Positions 2,363 through 23,796 of a stretch of 32,076 nt of DNA are shown piece after piece. This DNA is from a virus (lineage: Duplodnaviria > Heunggongvirae > Uroviricota > Caudoviricetes), in the IMG/VR virus record IMGVR_UViG_2802429236_000001, positions 1 through 32,076 of that record; one strand, 5' to 3'. The number at the start of each line of letters is the position of its first letter. The stretch's first letter is position 1. Made by a program: the position numbers and the translations under genes. The notes under the pieces are model-generated. The model saw nothing but the letters and a program-made list of their open reading frames with translations, was not told the origin of the DNA and searched no databases.

Positions 2363-3015
2363 TGAGTAATAAATATTGCCAGGCGCTGGTGGAACTGCGG
2401 AACAAACCAGCCCATGAACTGAAGGAAGTGGGCGATCAGTGGCGCACGCCGGACAACATTTTCTGGGGAATTAACACCCTGTTTGGCCCGTTTGTTCTGG
2501 ATCTGTTCACTGACGGTGATAACGCCAAATGTGCTGCGTATTACACGGCGGAAGACAACGCGCTGGCGCATGACTGGTCAGAACGTCTTGCGGAGCTTAA
2601 AGGGGCTGCCTTTGGTAATCCCCCATACAGCCGCGCCAGTCAGCATGAGGGGCAATACATCACCGGCATGCGTTACATCATGAAACATGCCAGTGCCATG
2701 CGTGATAAGGGTGGGCGCTATGTTTTCCTGATCAAAGCTGCCACCAGCGAAGTGTGGTGGCCGGAAGATGCAGACCATATTGCTTTTATTCGCGGGCGTA
2801 TTGGTTTTGAACTGCCTGCCTGGTTTATCCCGAAGGATGAGAAGCAGGTGCCGACAGGCGCGTTCTTCGCTGGTGCTATTGCTGTTTTCGACAAGACCTG
2901 GAAGGGACCGGCAATCAGCTACATCGGGCGCGATGAACTTGAGGCATGTGGTGAGGCGTTTTTGGCGCAGGTTCGCCAGCAGGCAGAAAAACTTGTCAGG
3001 GAGATGGCGGCATGA
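2362..3015 (+). CDS. Phage N6-adenine DNA methyltransferase (Dam-like orphan MTase)
   Basis: 217 aa; catalytic motif GNPPYS (motif IV of amino-methyltransferases). Start ATG overlaps the upstream stop (TAATG). Matches the small phage N-6-adenine-methyltransferase family seen in lambdoid prophages. Confidence 0.7.
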   Translation: MSNKYCQALVELRNKPAHELKEVGDQWRTPDNIFWGINTLFGPFVLDLFTDGDNAKCAAYYTAEDNALAHDWSERLAELKGAAFGNPPYSRASQHEGQYITGMRYIMKHASAMRDKGGRYVFLIKAATSEVWWPEDADHIAFIRGRIGFELPAWFIPKDEKQVPTGAFFAGAIAVFDKTWKGPAISYIGRDELEACGEAFLAQVRQQAEKLVREMAA

Positions 3016-3338
3016 CGACGTTAACTCAATGCCAGCAGCAGGTGCTGGATATGCTGATTTCTTACCAGCAAGAGCGTGGCTTTCCGCCAACCAATCAGGA
3101 GGTGGCAACCATGCTGGGATACCGTTCAGTGAATGCAGCGGTGGAGCATCTTCGCGCACTGGAGAAAAAAGGCGTCATCACGATAAAGCGTGGCGTGGCC
3201 CGGGGCATCACGCTTCATACCACGGTGAAGGACGACGACAGCGAGGCGGTCGGGATTATCCGCTCACTGCTTGCCGGTGAGGAAAACGCAAGGCTGCGTG
3301 CAGCCCACTGGTTACATGAGAGGGGCCTGAAAGTATGA
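3012..3338 (+). CDS. LexA-like N-terminal DNA-binding domain protein, no peptidase domain
   Basis: 108 aa; LTQCQQQVLDMLISYQQERGFPPTNQEVATMLGYRSVNAAVEHLRALEKKGVITI closely parallels the LexA winged-HTH domain. The C-terminal S24 peptidase/dimerisation domain is absent. ATGA overlap with the upstream gene. Confidence 0.65.
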   Translation: MTTLTQCQQQVLDMLISYQQERGFPPTNQEVATMLGYRSVNAAVEHLRALEKKGVITIKRGVARGITLHTTVKDDDSEAVGIIRSLLAGEENARLRAAHWLHERGLKV

Positions 3339-3724
3339 AGCTGATCCTGCCTTTTCCGCCCAGCGTGAACACGTACTGGCGACACCCCAACAAAGGGGCG
3401 TTTGCAGGTAAGAGCCTGATAAGCGCGGCGGGGCGCAAATTCCAGGGCGCGGCGTGTGCCGCCATCATTGAGCAGTTACGTCGTCTGCCGAAACCAACGT
3501 CGGCACCTGCTTCAGTGGAGATCGTGTTGTTTCCACCGGATAACCGGATCCGCGATCTGGATAACTATAACAAGGCGCTGTTTGACGCCCTGACCCACGC
3601 GGGTGTGTGGGAAGACGACAGCCAGGTGAAAAGAATGCTGGTGGAGTGGGGACCGGTTATCCCGGAAGGGAAGGTCGAGATCACTATAAGTAAGTACGAG
3701 AAAACGGCGGGTGCAGCCGCCTGA
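3335..3724 (+). CDS. rusA: RusA family Holliday junction resolvase
   Basis: 129 aa; MKLILPFPPSVNTYW...DLDNYNKALFDALTHAGVWEDDSQV matches RusA signature regions including the acidic catalytic residues. Confidence 0.8.
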   Translation: MKLILPFPPSVNTYWRHPNKGAFAGKSLISAAGRKFQGAACAAIIEQLRRLPKPTSAPASVEIVLFPPDNRIRDLDNYNKALFDALTHAGVWEDDSQVKRMLVEWGPVIPEGKVEITISKYEKTAGAAA

Positions 3725-3743: not shown

Positions 3744-4553
3744 ATGAATAATCTGATGGTCATTGATGGTATTGAAGTTCGTCGTGATGCTTATGGTCGT
3801 TACAGCCTGAACGATCTGCATCGCGCAGCAGTAGCATCTGGTGCAAATGCCAGAACCAAGGAGCCAGGAAAGTTTCTTTCCAGCCAACAAACTGTTGAGC
3901 TTGTTCATGAATTGACCAACACCCAGAATTTGGGTGTTGACCCGGTGAGTGTGATTCATGGGGGAAATGAACGGGGAACGTATGTCTGTAAGGAACTGGT
4001 GTATGCCTATGCAATGTGGATCAGCCCGTCATTCCATCTGAAGGTGATCCGTACTTTCGATATGGTAACCAGCGCACCGGAAAAATTATCCGGGCAAGCT
4101 GCTGACAAGATGCAGGCTGGAGTGATTCTGCTGGACTTTATGCGCAGGGAGTTAAACCTGTCTAACTCTTCAGTGCTTGGGGCCTGTCAGAAACTCCAGG
4201 AGGCTGTTGGCTTACCGAATCTGGCACCGCGCTATGCCATTGATGCTCCTGCTGATGCACACGATGGCTCAAGTCGCCCGACACTGTCACTGAGTGCACT
4301 GCTGAAACAGTATGGTATCCGCCTGACGGCTAATCAGGCATATCACCAGATGGTGAAGCTGGGGATCGTCGAGCAGCGCGAACGATACAGCCGTACCGCG
4401 ATTAACAACATCAAAAAATTCTGGTCGCTGACAGCGAAAGGCTGCATGTTCGGCAAGAACATCACCAGTCCCGCAAATCCGCGCGAGACGCAGCCGCATT
4501 TCTTCGAATCCCGATTCCCTGAGCTGTTAAAGCTGCTCGATACCGTTCATTGA
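3744..4553 (+). CDS. KilA-N domain-containing protein
   Basis: 269 aa with RBS AAGAGGAG. N-terminal VIDGIEVRRDAYGRYSLNDLHRAA...KELVYAYAMWISPSFHLKVI is a typical KilA-N domain. Confidence 0.6.
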   Translation: MNNLMVIDGIEVRRDAYGRYSLNDLHRAAVASGANARTKEPGKFLSSQQTVELVHELTNTQNLGVDPVSVIHGGNERGTYVCKELVYAYAMWISPSFHLKVIRTFDMVTSAPEKLSGQAADKMQAGVILLDFMRRELNLSNSSVLGACQKLQEAVGLPNLAPRYAIDAPADAHDGSSRPTLSLSALLKQYGIRLTANQAYHQMVKLGIVEQRERYSRTAINNIKKFWSLTAKGCMFGKNITSPANPRETQPHFFESRFPELLKLLDTVH

Positions 4554-5563: not shown

Positions 5564-6316
5564 ATGAACCTTGAAGCCTTACCAAAATATTACTCCCCAA
5601 AATCTCCAAAATTGAGCGATGACGCACCGGCGACAGGCTCGGGTGGTTTAACAATTACGGATGTGATGGCTGCGCAGGGGATGGTGCAGTCGAAAGCACC
5701 GCTTGGGTTTGCCTTATTCCTGGCAAAAGTTGGTGTTCAGGATCCTCAGTTTGCGATTGAAGGTCTGCTCAATTACGCGATGGCACTGGATAACCCGACA
5801 TTGAACAAATTGAGTGAAGAAACCCGGTTACAGATCATCCCTTACCTTGTGAGTTTTGCCTTTGCTGATTATTCCAGGTCTGCGGCAAGTAAGGCTCGCT
5901 GTGAGCATTGTGCTGGTACTGGATTTCATAATGTATTGCGCGAAGTGGTGAAACACTCCAGAAGCGGGGAGTCTGTTATCAAGGAAGAGTGGGTGAAGGA
6001 ACTATGTCAGCATTGTCATGGTAAGGGAGAAGTCAGCACAGCGTGCAGAGGGTGTAAGGGTAAAGGTATTGTCCTGGATGAAAAAAGAACCCGGCTTCAT
6101 GGTACGCCTGTTTATAAGATTTGTGGGCGTTGCAATGGTAACCGGTTTAGCCGTTTACCAACCACACTGGCGCGGCATCATGTCCAGAAGCTGGTACCTG
6201 CCCTGACGGATTATCAGTGGTACAAAGGATATGCAGATGTCATTGATAAACTGGTTACAAAGTGCTGGCAGGAAGAAGCATATGCAGAGACACAATTGAG
6301 AAAAGTGACAAGATAA
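5564..6316 (+). CDS. Late-gene antitermination protein Q (Cys-rich, zinc-binding type)
   Basis: 250 aa, good RBS (GGAGAACGAGC-ATG). Multiple CxxC/HC pairs (CEHCAG, CQHCHG, CRGCKG, CGRCNG). It sits immediately upstream of the lysis cassette with a promoter plus terminator pair right after it. Confidence 0.65.
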   Translation: MNLEALPKYYSPKSPKLSDDAPATGSGGLTITDVMAAQGMVQSKAPLGFALFLAKVGVQDPQFAIEGLLNYAMALDNPTLNKLSEETRLQIIPYLVSFAFADYSRSAASKARCEHCAGTGFHNVLREVVKHSRSGESVIKEEWVKELCQHCHGKGEVSTACRGCKGKGIVLDEKRTRLHGTPVYKICGRCNGNRFSRLPTTLARHHVQKLVPALTDYQWYKGYADVIDKLVTKCWQEEAYAETQLRKVTR

Positions 6317-6347
6317 ATGATTTTCGCCGAAGATGGCGACGTAATTC

Positions 6348-6376
6348 TTGCATTTTTCAAAAAATCTGGTTAGGAT
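6348..6376 (+). promoter_or_regulatory. Candidate late promoter pR' (TTGCAT-N17-TAGGAT)
   Basis: Sigma70-like hexamers with 17 bp spacing, about 30 bp after the Q stop and about 50 bp before an intrinsic terminator. This is the geometry expected for pR'/qut/tR'. Confidence 0.4.
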
Positions 6377-6426
6377 TCTCCTAACGATGGGCTTTGTATG
6401 TCTGCTGTTAACGAAATTATAACAAA

Positions 6427-6455
6427 CCTCGCTTCGGCGGGGTTTTTGCTTTTCT
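6427..6455 (+). terminator. Intrinsic terminator (candidate tR')
   Basis: CCTCGC-ttcg-GCGGGG hairpin (one G-U pair) followed by TTTTTGCTTTTC. Confidence 0.55.
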
Positions 6456-6507
6456 GGAGGTCAATAATGCAGGGCGAAAAGCAGCAGCCATATTTTTTAA
6501 CCCTGGT

Positions 6508-6678
6508 ATGACTGTTGAACAGCTTGAAGACTGGCTGGAGCAGCAAAAGCTTCATCTAAGCCGCTATAACCGTCTGGTAAAAGAAAAAGCCGAGCTTGAA
6601 GAACGGCTCAGTGATATTTCTGTGGAAATTGAACGGATGTCTGCTGGTGGTTTTAACGGAAAGTTGAGTTTCCCCTAG
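6508..6678 (+). CDS. Small coiled-coil ORF (56 aa), preceded by a 14-codon leader ORF (6467-6511)
   Basis: Not in the supplied track (shorter than 60 aa). Leader ATG at 6467 has a GGAGG RBS 6 nt upstream; its TGA overlaps the ATG of the 56-aa ORF (ATGA). Translation: MTVEQLEDWLEQQKLHLSRYNRLVKEKAELEERLSDISVEIERMSAGGFNGKLSFP. Confidence 0.3.
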   Translation: MTVEQLEDWLEQQKLHLSRYNRLVKEKAELEERLSDISVEIERMSAGGFNGKLSFP

Positions 6679-9467: not shown

Positions 9468-9745
9468 ATGGTAAAGATAATGGGAATCATAGAAATTATT
9501 GCTAGCGGTATTGTTGTGCTGGTTGCAGCCGCACTCAGCGTTTTTTACTGGCAATGTTCGTGGTTGTGGAAAAGTAGCAGAGAAAGCCAAACAGCAGCGC
9601 ACCGAAGAGAACGCAGTGGCGATCGTTGCAGCAATATCTGGGCTTCACTGCCGGGGCTGGTTATGGTCAGTTTGAGCATAAAGTTGACAGCCTGATTGCA
9701 AAATTCAAAGAAGCTGGCGGAACGGTCAGAGAGATTGAGGTATGA
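9468..9745 (+). pseudogene. Chimeric, frameshifted remnant: unknown TM-encoding 5' fragment joined to the 3' end of a lambda-type R endolysin gene
   Basis: From about 9621 the track frame reads DRCSNIWASLPG. After an apparent 1-nt deletion the next frame reads [27 protein letters not shown] and stops in the ATGA overlap with Rz. This matches the lambda R C-terminus as I recall it (...DRCSNIWASLPGAGYGQFEHKADSLIAKFKEAGGTVREIDV). The 5' part has no clear RBS. Confidence 0.5.
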
Positions 9746-10185
9746 GCAGAGTCACCGCGATTATCTCCGTTCTGGTTATCTGCATCATCGTCTGCCTGTC
9801 ATGGGCGGTTAATCATTACCGTGATAACGCCATCACCTACAAAAAGCAGCGCGATAAGGCCGCATCCATTATCGCTGACATGCAGAAACGTCAAAGTAAT
9901 GTAGCTGAACTCGATGCCAGATATACAAAGGAGCTTGCTGATGCTAACGCGACTATCGAAAGTCTTCGTGCTGATGTTTCTGCTGGTCGTAAGTGGCTGC
10001 ACGTCAAAGCAGTCTGTCCGGACATGCATAAAACCACCGCCGCCTCCGGCGTGGATGATGCTTCCAGCCCCAGACTTACTGACACCGCTCAACGGGATTA
10101 TTTCGTTCTCAGAGAGCGCATCGAAACCATAACTAACCAATTGAATGGCCTGCAAGAGTATGTGAGATCACAGTGTTCATATTAG
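9742..10185 (+). CDS. Rz: i-spanin Rz (lambda-type)
   Basis: 147 aa; [34 protein letters not shown]...[18 protein letters not shown] is near-identical to lambda Rz at both ends. Confidence 0.85.
9941..10132 (+). CDS. Rz1: o-spanin Rz1 (lipoprotein), embedded in the +1 frame of Rz
   Basis: Lipobox VVSGC, then TSKQSV...[10 protein letters not shown]...TPLNGIIS, matching lambda Rz1. Start chosen at the Met giving a 19-residue signal peptide; 9914 and 9974 are alternatives. Confidence 0.75.
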
Positions 10186-10223
10186 AAAAGTCTTATCATG
10201 AGATTTTTGTATATGGATGCATT

Positions 10224-10598
10224 ATGTCTCAATACGCGCGCGCCGCTTTAATCGCTTATCATTTGGTTGCTGATAGCTCAATGCCTCCTCGTGATGTATG
10301 GGATACAGCTGTCGCAGAGGTTACAGAAAGCGAATCGTCAAGAAAGAAGATATGCCCAAGGGCAACATTTCTCGCCCTAGCGGATAGCGGTTACCTCAAG
10401 AATGTAAAACCACTGCATGGGGAGAAAAAGGGCGGTAAGTTGTACCAAAGGGCAATTGAAGTTGCGAATCTGATTCTTGATTTACCCGGAATCAGTAAAG
10501 CTGAATTGGTTGATAAAACTGGTTACAAAGACAGGCAAGGGTCTTATGACCTGATTCTCGCTCTGTATCATCATGAGCAACTCCAGCGACCGGAATAA
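10224..10598 (+). CDS. Hypothetical protein (about 124 aa), accessory/moron candidate
   Basis: Open frame 10173..10598 in the track. No convincing RBS, so the start is uncertain. Lower GC than the core genes. No family recognised. Confidence 0.4.
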   Translation: MSQYARAALIAYHLVADSSMPPRDVWDTAVAEVTESESSRKKICPRATFLALADSGYLKNVKPLHGEKKGGKLYQRAIEVANLILDLPGISKAELVDKTGYKDRQGSYDLILALYHHEQLQRPE

Positions 10599-10715
10599 TT
10601 ATCCCGGCATCAGTGTCAAAAATAGGCAGTGATACGCTATTTTCCTGAAAATACTTTACTAACATTTTATGAGAATTATCCTAGTAAAGTGTTTATTTAA
10701 AAGGAGTTTGGGTTT

Positions 10716-10919
10716 ATGAAAATTCTCTGGGTCATCAGTCTTTTGTGTAGTGCTATTGGATTTATTGAAGGAATCCTCGGGGTTTTCGGTGCTCAGAGTG
10801 CTCCACAACAGGCTGCAGGTGCAGCAATGGGAGTAGCATGGGCAGTTATTCCATATTGTATTTGTCGTGCTATCCAACAATTGCGCCCTCGAGAAGTCAT
10901 TATTAAAAAGGAAGAATGA
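10716..10919 (+). CDS. Small two-helix membrane protein (67 aa), moron candidate
   Basis: Strong RBS AAAGGAG 8-9 nt upstream. Two hydrophobic helices. Flanked upstream by a 9-bp perfect inverted repeat (ACTTTACTA ... TAGTAAAGT, 10644-10681) and downstream by a hairpin plus T-run near 10951-10975. Confidence 0.5.
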   Translation: MKILWVISLLCSAIGFIEGILGVFGAQSAPQQAAGAAMGVAWAVIPYCICRAIQQLRPREVIIKKEE

Positions 10920-10984
10920 CCAGATCTTATCCGGTGTTTTTTCTGTCTAAGCCTCGCGTCGCGGGGCTTTTTATTGGAGCCAGC

Positions 10985-11335
10985 ATGCCACCACGAACCC
11001 CAAAAGCCTGCCGCGTTCGCGGCTGCCGCCAAACCACCACTGACCCGTCAGGCTACTGCGAAAGCCACAAAAGCGAAGGCTGGAAACAATACAAGCCAGG
11101 ACAATCCCGTCACCAGCGCGGCTACGGTTCGAAGTGGGATGTTATCCGCGCGCGCGTGCTGAAGCGTGACAAAGGCCTGTGTCAGTTGTGCCTGCGTGTC
11201 GGTGTGGTGCGTGAGGCGAAAACCGTTGACCACATCATCCCTAAAGCGCATGGCGGCACTGATGCAGACTGCAATCTGCAGAGCCTGTGCTGGCCGTGTC
11301 ATAAGACGAAGACGGCCCGTGAACGACTGAAGTGA
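10985..11335 (+). CDS. HNH endonuclease (packaging-associated, HK97 gp74-like position)
   Basis: 116 aa from the ATG with a GGAG RBS. CQLC...DHIIPKAHGGTDADCNLQSLCWPCHKTKT is an HNH motif. Sits directly upstream of the terminase genes. Confidence 0.75.
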   Translation: MPPRTPKACRVRGCRQTTTDPSGYCESHKSEGWKQYKPGQSRHQRGYGSKWDVIRARVLKRDKGLCQLCLRVGVVREAKTVDHIIPKAHGGTDADCNLQSLCWPCHKTKTARERLK

Positions 11336-18659: not shown

Positions 18660-18678
18660 GGTCGTTAATGATTTTACC

Positions 18679-18705
18679 CACCCGCCGCTGGCGGGTTTTT
18701 TATTT
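18679..18705 (+). terminator. Intrinsic terminator-like hairpin before the major tail gene
   Basis: CCCGCC-gctg-GCGGG followed by TTTTTTATTTT. Confidence 0.5.
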
Positions 18706-18718
18706 TCAGGAGACGAGT

Positions 18719-19423
18719 ATGTCCTCTAATTTTGAACGTTCTCAGCAGACCAAAGTCATGATCTCGTCTGCACCGGTAACGGCAGAAACGCTGAGTTCTG
18801 CCAGTTTTCTTGAACTGAGCTGTACGATTAAAGAGGTTCAGTTTACCGCCGGGCAGAAACAGGATATTGATGTCACTACGCTGTGTTCTACCGAGCAGGA
18901 GAATATCAACGGTCTTGGGGCTGCTTCAGAGATTTCCATGTCAGGAAACTTTTATCTCAACGCTGCCCAGAACGCGTTGCGTAGTGCTTATGACAACGAC
19001 ACCACATACGGTTTCAAAGTTATTTTCCCGTCAGGAAATGGATTTACCTTTATGGCAGAAGTTCGCCAGCATACCTGGTCTGTGGGAACCAACGGTGTTG
19101 TTGCTGCCACATTTTCCCTGCGCCTGAAAGGAAAGCCCTCTCTGACCACTGAACCTTTGAAACTCCTCTCTGATTTGAAAAGTACACTACAGGTTTCTGC
19201 CAGTGAAACGCTGAATATGTCTGTTGAGGCATCAGGTGGTGTGCCTCCTTATTCATATGTCTGGAAGAAAGGCAGCTCTCCAGTTTCCGGGCAGACATCG
19301 GCAACTTTCAACAAGGCCTCCGTGACATCCGGAGATGCCGGTGCGTATACCTGTGAGGTTTCTGATTCAGCAAGCCCGATTAATAAGGTGACCTCCACTT
19401 CCTGCACCGTAACTGTCAGTTAA
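18719..19423 (+). CDS. Major tail (tube) protein with C-terminal Ig-like domain
   Basis: 234 aa from the ATG after AGGAG. The C-terminal ~85 aa (GGVPPYSYVWKKGSS...GDAGAYTCEVSDSASP...CTVTV) has the Tyr-x-Cys pattern of Ig-like domains. Confidence 0.7.
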   Translation: MSSNFERSQQTKVMISSAPVTAETLSSASFLELSCTIKEVQFTAGQKQDIDVTTLCSTEQENINGLGAASEISMSGNFYLNAAQNALRSAYDNDTTYGFKVIFPSGNGFTFMAEVRQHTWSVGTNGVVAATFSLRLKGKPSLTTEPLKLLSDLKSTLQVSASETLNMSVEASGGVPPYSYVWKKGSSPVSGQTSATFNKASVTSGDAGAYTCEVSDSASPINKVTSTSCTVTVS

Positions 19424-19437
19424 GGAGGATGAAATCT

Positions 19438-19809
19438 ATGTCTAAAAATATCCGCAATCTGGCACTGGCGACGATGTCTGGTTTTCGCCACAAAACAGTT
19501 GATGTTCCTGAGTGGGAAGGTACAACGGTTGTATTACGGGAACCCTCTGCAGAAGCCTGGTTACGTTGGCAGGAGATCGTTAAAACCGGAGATGATGATA
19601 CACCGTTATCAGTTGCGGAGCGTGCCCGCCGAAATCTGGAAGCGGATGTTGAACTGTTCATCGATGTTCTGTGTGATACCGGGATGCAACCCGTGTTTTC
19701 AGCGGATGATCGGGAGCAGGTACTTGCAGTATATGGTCCGGTACATGCGCGACTGCTTCGTCAGTCACTGGAACTGATCACTGATGCTGAAGTTATTAAA
19801 AAAAAGTAG
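19438..19809 (+). CDS. Tail assembly chaperone G
   Basis: 123 aa, RBS AAGGAGG. Ends ...EVIKKK* with a slippery A-rich 3' end. Positioned between major tail and tape measure genes. Confidence 0.7.
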   Translation: MSKNIRNLALATMSGFRHKTVDVPEWEGTTVVLREPSAEAWLRWQEIVKTGDDDTPLSVAERARRNLEADVELFIDVLCDTGMQPVFSADDREQVLAVYGPVHARLLRQSLELITDAEVIKKK

Positions 19810-20111
19810 CACTTCCGGGTATTCGTTTTCTGATGATGCTGGCGCTCAGGATGGGGCGCACATTGTCAGAGTTACGCCGGGAAATGTCTGCATCGGAAAT
19901 CATGATGTGGGCAGAATTTGACAGGATCAGCCCGCTGGGTGACGAGCGGGCTGATATCCGGGCTGCCCAGATAGTTTCTGCAGTTTACGGGGCGCAGGGT
20001 GTCAAAGTTCCACTGAATGAAGCGATTCTTCAGTGGGAGGTTGTTCCTGCAAATAATATTAAAGATCCGTTCACAGCGTTTGAAAATGCATTATTTGCAG
20101 CGACACAATGA
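19438..20111 (+). CDS. Tail assembly chaperone G-T fusion made by programmed -1 ribosomal frameshift
   Basis: Slippery heptamer A-AAA-AAG at 19800-19806 sits just before the G stop. The -1 frame is open from there to 20111 (the T-like segment matches track ORF 19833..20111). Confidence 0.6.
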
Positions 20112-20120
20112 TCTTCTTAC

Positions 20121-20151
20121 TTTACTGGATTATGATTCCGATTTTTATTAA
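20121..20151 (+). promoter_or_regulatory. Possible moron promoter (TTACTG-N18-TATTAA)
   Basis: AT-rich spacer with sigma70-like hexamers about 20 bp upstream of the moron RBS. Weak match, by eye only. Confidence 0.25.
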
Positions 20152-20169
20152 GTAAATAAGGAGATATTG

Positions 20170-20511
20170 ATGGAAGTTATTCTTATTGCGCTAGTCCTGG
20201 GGTTAATTCCGGCTATTATCGCGCAAAGTAAAGGGCGTTCATTTTGGGGATGGTGGATATACGGAGCCTTACTCTTTATCGTTGCCCTGGTTCATTCACT
20301 TGTAATCCAAAAAGATGAAAAAACGCATGAGCAACAAATGGTGAGCAATGGCATGAAAAAATGCCCTTACTGTGCGGAGTTGATCAAAGAAGAAGCCATT
20401 AAGTGTAAGCATTGCGGTAGTGATTTAACACATAACCCTGATAGTACCGTTTCGCAAAAAACGGATGATGAATATCTTGAAGAAGCAAGGCGTAAGGCTG
20501 GGCTTCTTTAA
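20170..20511 (+). CDS. Membrane-anchored zinc-ribbon protein (moron between G-T and tape measure)
   Basis: 113 aa from the ATG 7 nt after AAGGAG. N-terminal hydrophobic helices (VILIALVLGLIPAIIA, WIYGALLFIVALV). C-terminal CPYC...CKHCG zinc-ribbon pattern. AT-rich; own terminator. Confidence 0.6.
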   Translation: MEVILIALVLGLIPAIIAQSKGRSFWGWWIYGALLFIVALVHSLVIQKDEKTHEQQMVSNGMKKCPYCAELIKEEAIKCKHCGSDLTHNPDSTVSQKTDDEYLEEARRKAGLL

Positions 20512-20513
20512 AA

Positions 20514-20541
20514 GCAAAAACCGCTTCGGCGGTTTTTTTTT
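20514..20541 (+). terminator. Intrinsic terminator ending the moron
   Basis: AAAAACCGC-ttcg-GCGGTTTTT with a run of 9 T. Confidence 0.7.
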
Positions 20542-20556
20542 GCCTGGAGAACGAGA

Positions 20557-23500
20557 ATGGCGTCACTACGCGAACTGATTATAAAAATCTCGGCAAATTC
20601 GCAGTCATTCCAGTCAGAAATTGCGCGAGCTTCACGTATGGGACAGGAGTACTACCGTACCATGCAGAACGGAGGTCGACAGTCTGCAGCTGCATCCCGT
20701 GATATGCGGCGAGCACTGGCAGAAGTGACCGAGCAGATAAATACGGCGAAGTCTTCGGCAATGAATATGGCTGGCGCATTTGCCGGTGCTTTTGCCACTG
20801 GACATCTTATATCTCTTGCGGATGAATGGAGCTCAGTAAATGCCCGTTTGAAGCAGGCCACGCAGTCCAGCGATGATTTCCAGGCATCACAGCGCGAATT
20901 AATGGCGATCAGCCAGAGAACGGGTACTGCTTTTGCTGATAACGCCAGTCTTTTTGCACGTTCGGCTTCTTCTATGCGGGAATATGGTTACAGGTCTGAG
21001 GAAGTACTGAAAGTTACCGAGGCCATTTCTACAGGATTGAAATTGTCCGGAGCCAGTTCTGCGGAAGCCAGCTCGGTGATCACTCAGTTCAGCCAGGCAC
21101 TGGCGCAAGGGGTTCTGCGCGGTGAAGAGTTTAATTCAGTAAATGAAAGCGGTGATCGTGTTATTCGTGCTCTGGCTGCAGGAATGGGGGTTGCCCGTAA
21201 AGATCTGAAGGCAATGGCGGATGATGGAAAGCTGACCGCCGATAAGGTTGTTCCTGCACTGATTAGTCAGCTTGGTACGCTGCGGGATGAATATGCAGCC
21301 ATGCCTGATACTGTATCATCCTCTGCAACCAAAGTTGAAAACGCTTTTATGGCCTGGGTTGGTGGTGCGAATGATGCCAGCGGTGCAACAAAAACGCTTA
21401 CCGGAATAATGAATGGTGTTGCGAATAATATTGATACGGTTGCCACGGCGGCGGGAGCTCTGGTTGCAATTGGTGTAGCCCGATATTTTGGCAATATGGC
21501 GTCTTCTGCGGGCTCTGCAACTGCCGGGTTAATCACTGCTGCCAGAAACGAAGTGGCTCTTGCTGAGGCACAGCTCAGAGGGACACAGATAGCAACAGCC
21601 AGAGCGCGGGCGGCATTGTATCGTGCGCAGCAGGCGGTTATGGCTGCCCGTGGTACAGAAAAACAGGCTGCAGCAGAAGCGAAACTGGCAACCGCACAGG
21701 CTTCACTTACCCGTAATATTGCTGCCAGAACAGCGGCACAGGCAACGCTGAATAACGTTACGTCAGTTAGTAGTCGGTTGTTAAGCGGTGCTCTGGGGCT
21801 GGTTGGTGGTGTGCCTGGACTTGTCATGCTGGGGGCGGCGGCCTGGTACACAATGTATCAGAACCAGGAGCAGGCCAGAGAATCAGCGCGTCAGTATGCC
21901 GCAACAATCGACGAAATTCGCCAGAAAACGTCGGCAATGTCGCTTCCTGAAGCGTCAGATAATGAGGAAAAGACGCGGCAGGCACTTGATGAGCAAAACA
22001 GGTTAATTGACGAGCAGAAAAGTAAGATTAAATCCTTACAGGAAAAAATTGCTGGCTATCAGTATGTGCTGGCAAACCCGGGCTGGACAACCGATAACGG
22101 TTTTATGATTAACCACATGACGTCGGTAAAAACTGTCACAGAAGGGCTTGCAGAAGCAACAAATCAACTGGCAGTTGAACAGTCCCGTCTCACACAAATG
22201 CAGGGCAAAGCGCAATCCATTCAGGATGTGCTTGCCGGGCTGGAGGAGCGACGGGTGGCGTTGATCCGTCAACAGGCCGCGGAACAAAACAAAGCGTATC
22301 AGTCCCTGTTGATCATGAATGGGCAGCATACCGAGTTTAATCGCCTTCTCGGGCTCGGTAATGAATTACTTCAGCAGCGACAGGGGCTGGTGAATGTACC
22401 GTTACGGCTACCACAGGCAACCCTGGATGATAAACAGCAGACTGCACTGAATAACAGCGAGCGCGAACTGGCTCTGTCCCGCCTGAAGGGGGAGGCCCGT
22501 GAGCGTGCCCGCCTGGGTTATGCTGCGGATGATCTCGGCTTTGTGGGAGAGGCGTATCAGACAGCCAGACAGAATTATATCAATAACTCACTGGATGCCT
22601 GGCGAAATAACCAGGCAAATAAACCCAAAGCGCATAAAAAGACCGAAGCGGAAAAAACAGAAGATATTTATAACCGGCTGATTAAACAGCAAAAAGAACA
22701 AATAGCACTGGCAGGGCAGAATACTGAACTGGCTAAGATGAAATATCAGGTCAGTCAGGGCGAATTATCAACCCTGTCAGAAGCGCAGAAAAAAACGCTT
22801 TTGCAGAATGCAGCACTCATCGACCAGAAAAAGATTCGTGAGCAGCTTGCTGCGTATGAGAGCAGTCTGGCGGACAGTAATGCCAGTGCCAGGGCATCTG
22901 ACGAAGCGCAGTTGTTGGGATATGGTGAAGGCTCACGGATGCGTGAACGACTCCAGGAAATGTGGAGTATCCGGCAGGCGTTTGAGCAGAAAAATAACGA
23001 GCTGCTGAGACAGTATCAGGCCGGAGAAATTGAAGAAGCCCTGTGGAAACAGGAAAAATCGCTGAATGAAAAATATCTGGAAGAGCGTCTCAGCGATCAG
23101 CAGGATTATTATGCAAAGGCTGATGCTTTACGCAGTGACTGGAATGCCGGCCTCCAGGAGGGACTGACGAACTGGGCAGACAGTGCCACCGATTATGCTT
23201 CGCAGGCGGCAGATGCGGTCGTTTCCACTATGGACGGGCTGGTATCAAATATTTCCGATGCACTGGCCGGAAATGTTGTGGACTGGAGAAACTGGGGGAG
23301 TTCAATTCTCCAGGAAGTTTCAAAAATTCTGATGAACGCTGCCATCGTTAACGGGCTGAAGTCACTTTCCAAAAGCATGTCCGGTGCCGGAGGATGGCTT
23401 GGTACGGTCGGCGACTGGCTTTCCGGTGCAGTGGCAAACGCAAAAGGTGGTGTTTACACATCGGCAAATCTGAGTGCTTACAGTAACACTATTGTGGATA

Positions 23501-23796
23501 CACCGACGTATTTTGCTTTTGCGAAAGGTGCCGGGCTGATGGGCGAGGCCGGGCCTGAAGCTATCATGCCACTGACACGGGCAGCGGACGGCTCTCTTGG
23601 GGTCAGAGCCATTGGCAATGTGAATGGTGGCGGGGGATTTGTTTATTCTCCCGTGTATCACATCAGTATTCAGAATAAAGGGAGCAATGGCGAGATAGAT
23701 ACGCAGTCAGCCAGGGGGCTGGTGGATCTGATCGACAGCAGGGTTGTGTCAATTATGCAGTCATCACGTCGGGACGGAGGATTATGCAGTGCCTGA
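20557..23796 (+). CDS. Tail tape measure protein
   Basis: 1079 aa, largely alpha-helical Ala/Gln-rich low-complexity sequence, in the position between G-T and M. Antisense/alt-frame ORFs inside it are artefacts. Confidence 0.85.
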   Translation: MASLRELIIKISANSQSFQSEIARASRMGQEYYRTMQNGGRQSAAASRDMRRALAEVTEQINTAKSSAMNMAGAFAGAFATGHLISLADEWSSVNARLKQATQSSDDFQASQRELMAISQRTGTAFADNASLFARSASSMREYGYRSEEVLKVTEAISTGLKLSGASSAEASSVITQFSQALAQGVLRGEEFNSVNESGDRVIRALAAGMGVARKDLKAMADDGKLTADKVVPALISQLGTLRDEYAAMPDTVSSSATKVENAFMAWVGGANDASGATKTLTGIMNGVANNIDTVATAAGALVAIGVARYFGNMASSAGSATAGLITAARNEVALAEAQLRGTQIATARARAALYRAQQAVMAARGTEKQAAAEAKLATAQASLTRNIAARTAAQATLNNVTSVSSRLLSGALGLVGGVPGLVMLGAAAWYTMYQNQEQARESARQYAATIDEIRQKTSAMSLPEASDNEEKTRQALDEQNRLIDEQKSKIKSLQEKIAGYQYVLANPGWTTDNGFMINHMTSVKTVTEGLAEATNQLAVEQSRLTQMQGKAQSIQDVLAGLEERRVALIRQQAAEQNKAYQSLLIMNGQHTEFNRLLGLGNELLQQRQGLVNVPLRLPQATLDDKQQTALNNSERELALSRLKGEARERARLGYAADDLGFVGEAYQTARQNYINNSLDAWRNNQANKPKAHKKTEAEKTEDIYNRLIKQQKEQIALAGQNTELAKMKYQVSQGELSTLSEAQKKTLLQNAALIDQKKIREQLAAYESSLADSNASARASDEAQLLGYGEGSRMRERLQEMWSIRQAFEQKNNELLRQYQAGEIEEALWKQEKSLNEKYLEERLSDQQDYYAKADALRSDWNAGLQEGLTNWADSATDYASQAADAVVSTMDGLVSNISDALAGNVVDWRNWGSSILQEVSKILMNAAIVNGLKSLSKSMSGAGGWLGTVGDWLSGAVANAKGGVYTSANLSAYSNTIVDTPTYFAFAKGAGLMGEAGPEAIMPLTRAADGSLGVRAIGNVNGGGGFVYSPVYHISIQNKGSNGEIDTQSARGLVDLIDSRVVSIMQSSRRDGGLCSA

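Follow-up and report, generated by a model that had tools for sequence, protein, structure and literature searches.

A predicted zinc-ribbon membrane protein encoded by a probable moron beside the tape measure gene of an HK97-like Escherichia coli prophage

The question raised by this locus is what an additional gene, placed between the tail assembly gene T and the tape measure gene of an HK97-like prophage, may do for the phage or for its host. The gene lies in the IMG/VR virus record IMGVR_UViG_2802429236_000001, positions 1 to 32,076 of which were analysed as one stretch of DNA (hereafter the window). It occupies positions 20170–20511 of the plus strand (ATG at 20170, stop codon at 20509–20511, as given in the list of open reading frames, ORFs) and encodes a protein of 113 amino acids, MEVILIALVLGLIPAIIAQSKGRSFWGWWIYGALLFIVALVHSLVIQKDEKTHEQQMVSNGMKKCPYCAELIKEEAIKCKHCGSDLTHNPDSTVSQKTDDEYLEEARRKAGLL. 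In a prophage that is 99.9% identical, this protein was annotated by the Prokaryotic Genome Annotation Pipeline (PGAP) as a 'zinc ribbon domain-containing protein' (RefSeq WP_021543566.1). The gene is contained in an AT-rich insert of 404 nucleotides (nt) (20112–20515, plus strand) that is missing from closely related tail modules. This cassette is an accessory gene in the late (tail) operon of the HK97-like prophage and, with little room for doubt, a functional moron encoding a two-helix membrane protein with a four-cysteine (C4) ribbon. The function that we propose for it by analogy, superinfection exclusion at the step of DNA entry, is plausible and is put forward tentatively.

The insert was delimited by alignment with the moron-less phage Evi, its boundaries being the stop codon of T (ending at 20111) and a hairpin (starting at 20516). 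In the phages Evi, phi467, PhiR49_2 and several vB_EcoS phages the flanks are about 88% identical and some 400 nt are missing, 1601 query bases corresponding to approximately 1202 in these moron-less phages. The insert is also absent from E. coli JJ1886, ETEC4090 and UMNK88, where the tape measure gene starts within 46 nt of T. Among 5426 complete E. coli genomes, a related T gene was present in 903 and the insert in 54. The base composition is deviant as well: the GC content is 39.6% in the insert (20112–20515) and 25.9% in its 58-nt leader, compared with 51.7% in the window as a whole, and only 0.4% of the 404-nt segments reach a GC content as low as that of the insert. The preliminary description, which had reported an AT-rich insert in the tail operon, was thus correct in this respect, and presence or absence among close relatives and foreign composition are two marks of a moron, in the sense of Juhala and Hendrix, that the element bears. 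Flanking direct or inverted repeats were sought as a signature of insertion and none was convincing, and no known RNA family came near a gathering score in the region.

Two transmembrane (TM) helices are predicted at the N-terminal end of the protein by hydropathy and by AlphaFold2 (residues 2–21 and 25–46, encoded at 20173–20307, plus strand), with Kyte-Doolittle means over 19 residues of 2.34 (residues 1–19) and 2.12 (residues 28–46). Both helices are connected by a nearly invariant basic turn, K21-G22-R23-S24, and the consensus of this hairpin module is GLIPAxIAxSKGRSFxxWWxYGxLLFIVALxHS. A C4 zinc ribbon follows at residues 62–86 (20353–20427, plus strand), with the motif KCPYCAELIKEEAIKCKHCGSD; it matches Pfam Zn_ribbon_3 (PF13248) above the cut-off (34.6 bits, cut-off 27; 1.1e-8), and its CxxC motifs are located at residues 65–68 and 79–82. 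The C-terminal end is formed by a charged helix (residues 99–109, DDEYLEEARRK; 20464–20496, plus strand), predicted by AlphaFold2 and kept in the E. coli and Salmonella alleles. The AlphaFold2 model, with a mean predicted local distance difference test score (pLDDT) of 77, comprises helices at residues 2–21, 25–59 and 99–109, the ribbon at 62–85 and a disordered linker, the hairpin helices having pLDDT values of 81–89. Hydropathy, the model and the Zn_ribbon_3 match therefore bear out the N-terminal hydrophobic helices and the C-terminal CxxC...CxxC motif noted earlier for the 113-residue protein. A fold search with the model against viral structures returned nothing beyond unnamed 'zinc-ribbon containing' metagenomic proteins.

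The four cysteines of the ribbon (C65, C68, C79 and C82) are invariant across 125 homologs, and 26 further residues are nearly invariant, many of them within the membrane helices. These include G11, I13, P14, A15, I17, A18, K21, G22, R23 and S24, and also F25, W28, W29, Y31, G32, F36, I37, A39 and H42. The conservation of the helices is sequence-specific and goes beyond the needs of a simple membrane anchor. Comparison with the allele of E. coli TUM1881 (86% amino acid identity) gave a ratio of nonsynonymous to synonymous substitution rates (dN/dS) of 0.08. Judged by these comparisons, the gene is under strong purifying selection, functional and long resident. The reading of the ORF as a product of chance or a decaying remnant without function, which has nothing in its favour beyond the absence of a known function, is effectively refuted by this conservation, and the same is indicated by at least 1761 homologous clusters at 90% identity and by the strong Shine-Dalgarno sequence and putative conserved promoter described below.

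The Shine-Dalgarno sequence, AAGGAG (20158–20163, plus strand), was read from the sequence 6 nt upstream of the ATG, in agreement with the ribosome binding site (RBS) that had been attributed to the insert. Since a generic promoter consensus scan of the region gave nothing above chance, the evidence for a promoter comes from the comparison of related loci, in which the upstream regions of 75 loci were reduced to 57 distinct sequences. A −35-like and a −10-like hexamer, separated by a spacer of exactly 17 nt with variable sequence, were found in 56 of these 57. A spacer of fixed length and variable sequence between conserved hexamers is the footprint expected of a working sigma-70 promoter. The −35 position reads GTGACA, GTGACT or TTGATA in 49 of the 57 upstream regions and ATGATC in the lineage of the window (20108–20113, plus strand; three of six consensus matches), where it overlaps the T stop codon TGA at 20109–20111. 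The −10 hexamer occurs as TAGGAT, TATGAT, TATTAT or TAAGAT, 27–34 nt upstream of the ATG among the related loci, and in the window as TATGAT (20131–20136, plus strand; five of six matches), 33 nt upstream of the start codon. The insert thus appears to have its own conserved sigma-70-type promoter, and the lysogen would be expected to express the moron gene. The promoter previously regarded as plausible is in this way supported by the hexamer pair of the related loci, and not by the scan.

Downstream of the gene, a terminator scan revealed a terminator-like hairpin, AAAAACCGC-UUCG-GCGGUUUUU, followed by a U-run (20516–20545, plus strand, the hairpin itself at 20516–20537). Its 9-nt arms pair perfectly, in the canonical shape of an intrinsic terminator, and it is kept among related loci with compensatory stem variants (CCGC/GCGG, CCCCGC/GCGGGG). 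The same hairpin was found in the moron-less Evi, JJ1886 and UMNK88 and also 3' of HK97 gene 15; in JJ1886 it lies at 2815–2845 of stretch L006. Because moron-less relatives have it too, the hairpin is an element of the backbone and was not carried in by the insert; it may be a regulatory element of the T/tape-measure junction or a scar of moron loss. The moron transcript would end there, 5' of the tape measure gene. Hence, of the self-contained unit with a strong terminator that had been described, the hairpin with its U-run is real but is not the insert's own, and it is the conserved promoter footprint that speaks for independent transcription.

The whole window region is 99.9% identical to prophages of E. 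coli FDAARGOS_497, ECONIH1, Ecol_881 and others. According to PGAP annotation, the copy in FDAARGOS_497 is an HK97-like lambdoid prophage adjoining dusA. Its head genes encode a P27-family small terminase, an HK97-family prohead protease and capsid and an HK97 gp10-like protein; its tail genes encode a major tail protein with an Ig domain, the G and T chaperones, the tape measure protein and the M/L/K/I/J tail-tip proteins; a lambda-family holin, an endolysin, a spanin and an antiterminator are likewise annotated. The Pfam and PHROG results for the ORFs of the window agree with these assignments. On the plus strand, the moron is preceded by the tail chaperone G (19429–19809; Pfam Phage_TAC_1) and by the frame of tail assembly protein T, the G-T frameshift product (19833–20111; Pfam Phage_tail_T, 2e-17), and is followed by the gene of the 1079-amino acid tape measure protein (20557–23796; phrog_339 and PGAP annotation), with its RBS GGAG at 20546–20549. 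The programmed −1 frameshift site of G-T, A AAA AAG, lies at 19800–19806, immediately 5' of the G stop codon TAG (19807–19809). At its C-terminal end the major tail protein (18668–19423) has an immunoglobulin-like domain (Pfam Ig_2/Ig_3), a feature shared with many tail tube proteins of lambdoid phages.

One other stretch of the window equals the moron in AT-richness. It begins near 10391, within the interval of about 10173–10919, between an Rz-like lysis gene (9742–10185) and an HNH endonuclease gene (10916–11335), and contains a DUF6979-type ORF (10173–10598) and an ORF of 67 amino acids with two hydrophobic helices (10716–10919). It may be another accessory slot.

Another question is whether the product of the moron serves the phage's own cycle as a late protein, in tail or tape measure assembly, in genome ejection or in the timing of lysis; its gene would then be transcribed as part of the tail operon and not in the prophage state. 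The gene is inside the late operon and on the same strand, and late antiterminated transcription would read through it anyway, an antiterminator gene being present in the prophage. It has also been retained across its clade together with tail genes that are as diverged as itself: across the loci that carry it in this slot, identities are 64–71% for the zinc-ribbon protein, 47–69% for G and 38–73% for the tape measure protein, so that the backbones have diverged as far as the moron gene or further. On the other hand, Evi, phi467 and the vB_EcoS series are viable isolated phages that lack the gene between flanks about 88% identical, most of the related E. coli prophages do without it, and its putative conserved promoter and foreign base composition also speak against this role. 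A holin, an endolysin and a spanin are encoded by the prophage in any case, and no virion or holin family in the Pfam and PHROG scans matched the 113-residue protein. We consider a role in the phage's own cycle unlikely. A holin or lysis function in particular was rejected, given the complete lysis cassette located elsewhere in the prophage and the lack of a holin family match.

Morons in the slot between T and the tape measure gene are a textbook feature of such phages, HK97 gp15 being the founding example. In the HK97 annotation the order is gp13/14, Gp15 ('moron product'), a putative terminator and the tape measure protein, and this annotation, together with the Evi alignment, confirms that the insert is placed in the gp15 slot, as the preliminary description had stated: in both cases T lies on one side of the moron and the tape measure gene on the other, with the terminator hairpin between the moron and the tape measure RBS. 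Both genes are absent from close relatives, both encode small inner-membrane proteins (predicted here for the window protein), and both appear to derive from chromosomal bacterial gene families. The proteins differ in that gp15 has 62 amino acids and a single N-terminal hydrophobic helix, whereas the window protein has 113, with two helices and the C4 ribbon, and in that the function of gp15 is known from experiment and the window protein is known from its sequence. Gp15 was characterized as a protein of the inner membrane that brings about exclusion, with a specificity that maps to the phage tail region (PMC3594210). It appears to stem from a host gene, yebO, captured by the phage, whereas no phage phenotype attaches to YebO itself (PMC3594210).

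A second parallel is provided by the Imm protein of phage T4, which is annotated as blocking DNA transfer. According to a 2026 preprint, Imm binds gp29, the tape measure protein of T4, and blocks genome translocation, and the substitutions R33A and W50A weaken exclusion (bioRxiv 10.64898/2026.03.06.709160). Imm matches the Pfam family PF14373 (Imm_superinfect) at 7e-16. Like the window protein (as predicted here), it is a small inner-membrane protein with a conserved helical hairpin and a P-x-x-I-A...basic-G turn, and a weak profile similarity extends over TM1 and the turn. Unlike it, Imm has no ribbon and is encoded by an early gene of a lytic phage instead of a prophage moron.

The two types of protein are brought together by gp065 of the Pseudomonas phage YMC11/02/R656, a protein of 195 amino acids found by tblastn (9e-8 over residues 7–91). 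In this protein the same CPYCAE ribbon is joined to an Imm_superinfect hairpin (PF14373, 1.6e-18), and the gene is flanked by those of the tail chaperones (Phage_TAC_4, DUF1799) on one side and of a lambda-type tape measure protein on the other. Gp065 is thus a direct homolog with the same order of hairpin and ribbon and in the same slot, differing in its bona fide PF14373 hairpin and in about 80 additional C-terminal residues; its RefSeq name, 'immunity to superinfection', derives from the Pfam match and not from experiment. Proteins 80% identical to gp065 occur in Pseudomonas prophages of IMG/VR (5977–6588 of stretches L099–L108), elsewhere in the tail module: they are encoded 5' of an I-like gene (194 amino acids) and a J-like gene (1257 amino acids), not of a tape measure gene. 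As gp065 and these close relatives sit in different slots, the same cargo has moved between slots of the tail module.

The combination of PF14373 with Zn_ribbon_3 is a common architecture, and both hairpin types pair with the same partner domains, namely Zn_ribbon_3 (as the same CPYCAE...KC.HCG ribbon), SHOCT and GYF_2. In the window protein, some 10 residues fewer separate the two helices than in the PF14373 hairpins. When the hairpin alone was compared with PF14373-type hairpins by hhalign, TM1 and the P-x-x-I-A...basic turn were aligned with scores of 22.7 and 21.6 (P = 1.2e-3 and 8e-4), which exceed all 150 and all 120 column shuffles, respectively (shuffle means 10.9 and 11.8, maxima 21 and 20). 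We regard the window hairpin and the PF14373 hairpin, which may be distantly related, as interchangeable partners of a single conserved ribbon (CPYCAE.IK.EAIKCKHCG). For R33 and W50 of Imm, possible counterparts are the nearly invariant residues K21/R23 and W28/W29, which is only a lead.

Homologs of the window protein recur beside tape measure genes. Of the 80 closest relatives of the protein in IMG/VR (57–100% identity), 75 are encoded in the T/tape-measure slot. The slot between chaperones and tape measure is also occupied in Salmonella FSL SP-016, as in YMC11/02/R656, and homologs lie immediately 5' of the tape measure genes of Pseudomonas PP9W2 and of the Klebsiella ST846 and ST11 phages. 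At 31–36% identity, tblastn detected homologs in Pseudomonas, Klebsiella, Microcystis and Marinomonas phages, and one Klebsiella homolog is placed in a myovirus-like baseplate region. In the Klebsiella phage ST11-VIM1phi8.2, the homolog is annotated as two adjacent 'zinc ribbon' coding sequences (3983–4539 of stretch L017), which together correspond to the single 143-amino acid protein of ST846-OXA48phi9.2 (hairpin, ribbon and C-terminal TM helix; 2983–3414 of stretch L012), and the ST11 copy is therefore frameshifted or split.

Beyond these phages, the protein belongs to a large family. It matches phrog_8436, of unknown function, over its full length (3.2e-51, protein residues 1–111 against model positions 1–108 of 110). 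A phmmer search with the hairpin alone (residues 1–58) retrieved 2079 representative clusters at E≤1e-3; no Pfam model covering the hairpin module was found, and matches to NCBIfam, caused by the ribbon, were far below threshold and not convincing. The hairpin is followed by a CxxC...CxxC motif in 101 of 145 representatives; others have the hairpin only, or combine it with SHOCT, with GYF_2 or with a third TM helix plus outer domain. Proteins 57–59% identical over residues 1–86 were detected in genomes of Parvibaculum, Desulfobacterium, Bacillota and Anaerolineales, that is, in Alphaproteobacteria, Desulfobacterota, Bacillota and Chloroflexota. By sequence, then, the prophage gene is one branch of a broad bacterial family of small membrane proteins. 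Membrane-anchored Zn_ribbon_3 proteins of the TcaA type also have this ribbon beside membrane helices, but in the order ribbon, TM helix and extracellular domain, whereas the hairpin comes first in the window protein; the match to TcaA is due to the ribbon alone (E=3e-4; 19.7 bits, cut-off 550). Some members of the hairpin family resemble TcaA in adding the third TM helix and outer domain past the ribbon.

From these parallels we infer superinfection exclusion as the possible function of the moron: gp15, in the same slot, is an inner-membrane protein that excludes phages with a specificity dependent on the tail; T4 Imm blocks DNA transfer and reportedly binds the tape measure protein; and a tape measure gene is adjoined by that of a homolog in which the same ribbon is joined to a true Imm hairpin. 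A lysogen expressing the moron would gain protection from superinfecting siphoviruses at the step of DNA entry. In or at the inner membrane, the protein would interfere with the incoming tape measure protein or with the channel formed by it, as HK97 gp15 and T4 Imm reportedly do. The ribbon is probably cytoplasmic, where it would act as a module for interaction or oligomerisation; this orientation is suggested, not proved, by those family members in which a third TM helix follows the ribbon.

Several observations weigh against this proposal. The window protein shows no similarity to gp15 (BLASTP, E=5), and the Pfam family YebO (PF13974), which matches gp15 at 1.2e-8, does not match it at E≤1; homology to gp15/YebO was hence rejected, and the analogy with gp15 remains one of position, just as it was first presented. 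The link to Imm is also faint. PF14373 does not match the window protein at E≤1 and matches none of the 125 family members, nor is it among the families that most relatives match in the Pfam check of these 125 at E≤10. The hhalign probability is just 19–24% for the hairpin match and 4.9% for T4 Imm itself, and with hmmsearch the real hairpin sequences are barely apart from decoys. Direct membership of PF14373 was consequently rejected at the level of hidden Markov models, a weak profile similarity remaining. The search of PADLOC-DB v2 produced only weak matches driven by the ribbon, to HEase (5e-5) and LmuB (3e-3), over some 50 residues each, and no paper on the hairpin-ribbon family was found in a literature search. 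As for the protein and its expression, the positive-inside rule leaves the topology ambiguous (2.1 K+R and no acidic residues in the loop; 3.2 K+R and 4.9 D+E in the N-terminus plus C-flank), and the −35 of the window allele is poor. Not all homologs adjoin a tape measure gene: longer ones lie between the tail genes K and I/J in Serratia and Pseudomonas, another at a prophage end in Enterobacter, adjoining a tailspike gene and an O-antigen acyltransferase gene, and the distant chromosomal relatives are mostly found in neighbourhoods unlike phage. Across loci, moreover, the identity of the protein does not follow that of the tape measure protein. These observations weaken the case for a strict link in function between the protein and the tape measure gene; the homologs in phages and prophages occupy typical slots of accessory genes, in which adjacency to the tape measure recurs without being obligatory. 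Finally, since hairpin-ribbon proteins are widespread in the chromosomes of many phyla, exclusion is not the general role of the family.

The same distribution raises the question of whether the moron brings about lysogenic conversion without phage exclusion, as a captured bacterial membrane protein that modulates an envelope or stress function of the host. The protein might, for example, bind a host membrane protein or transporter, with a benefit to the host other than blocking phage. The 2079 hairpin clusters, the 57–59% identical proteins in these bacterial groups, mostly outside phage neighbourhoods, and the homolog in a classic conversion slot beside the O-antigen acyltransferase and tailspike are in line with this explanation, and the anatomy of the moron suits it equally well. 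The history of gp15, captured from a host gene whose own product has no phage phenotype, is a precedent (PMC3594210). Against it, no match in Pfam, PADLOC or NCBIfam suggests a specific host function, while the recurrence beside tape measure genes in at least four unrelated tail modules and the Imm-type hairpin in a homolog point to phage entry. Conversion of this kind is accordingly a serious possibility, albeit a doubtful one.

Defence could also take another form, that of an abortive-infection or otherwise toxic membrane effector, which would respond to a sign of infection, for instance the incoming tape measure protein or DNA, permeabilise the membrane and kill the cell instead of blocking entry. 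With its small size, high conservation, two membrane helices and interaction domain, the protein would be suited to this task, and prophage morons often encode defences (PMC3594210; PMC10884400). However, the 404-nt insert contains no partner gene, antitoxin or enzymatic domain, the PADLOC matches are those weak ones of the ribbon, and the broad occurrence of the family in chromosomes, where the gene stands singly, speaks against a toxicity of its own, which makes such an effector quite improbable here.

The type of cassette described here is already well known, whereas its cargo is an unstudied, widespread and strongly conserved family, which has so far figured only under the names PHROG 8436 and 'zinc ribbon domain-containing protein' and whose two-helix module lacks a Pfam model. 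Prophages with the insert gene occur in clinically relevant E. coli lineages. Superinfection exclusion, our preferred reading, would make this a candidate new exclusion family, on account of its tape measure adjacency, the architecture that it has in common with Imm-type relatives and the reported binding of Imm to a tape measure protein; a negative outcome for exclusion would show that the slot also carries cargo of other kinds. It is conceivable, if speculative, that the hairpin-ribbon proteins and their PF14373-ribbon cousins constitute a large unrecognised class of prophage entry blockers that bind tape measure proteins. If this is true, the two-helix module would be a second, Imm-like membrane fold for binding tape measure proteins, and the placement beside the tape measure gene would reflect selection linking an entry blocker to the type of tape measure that it recognises.

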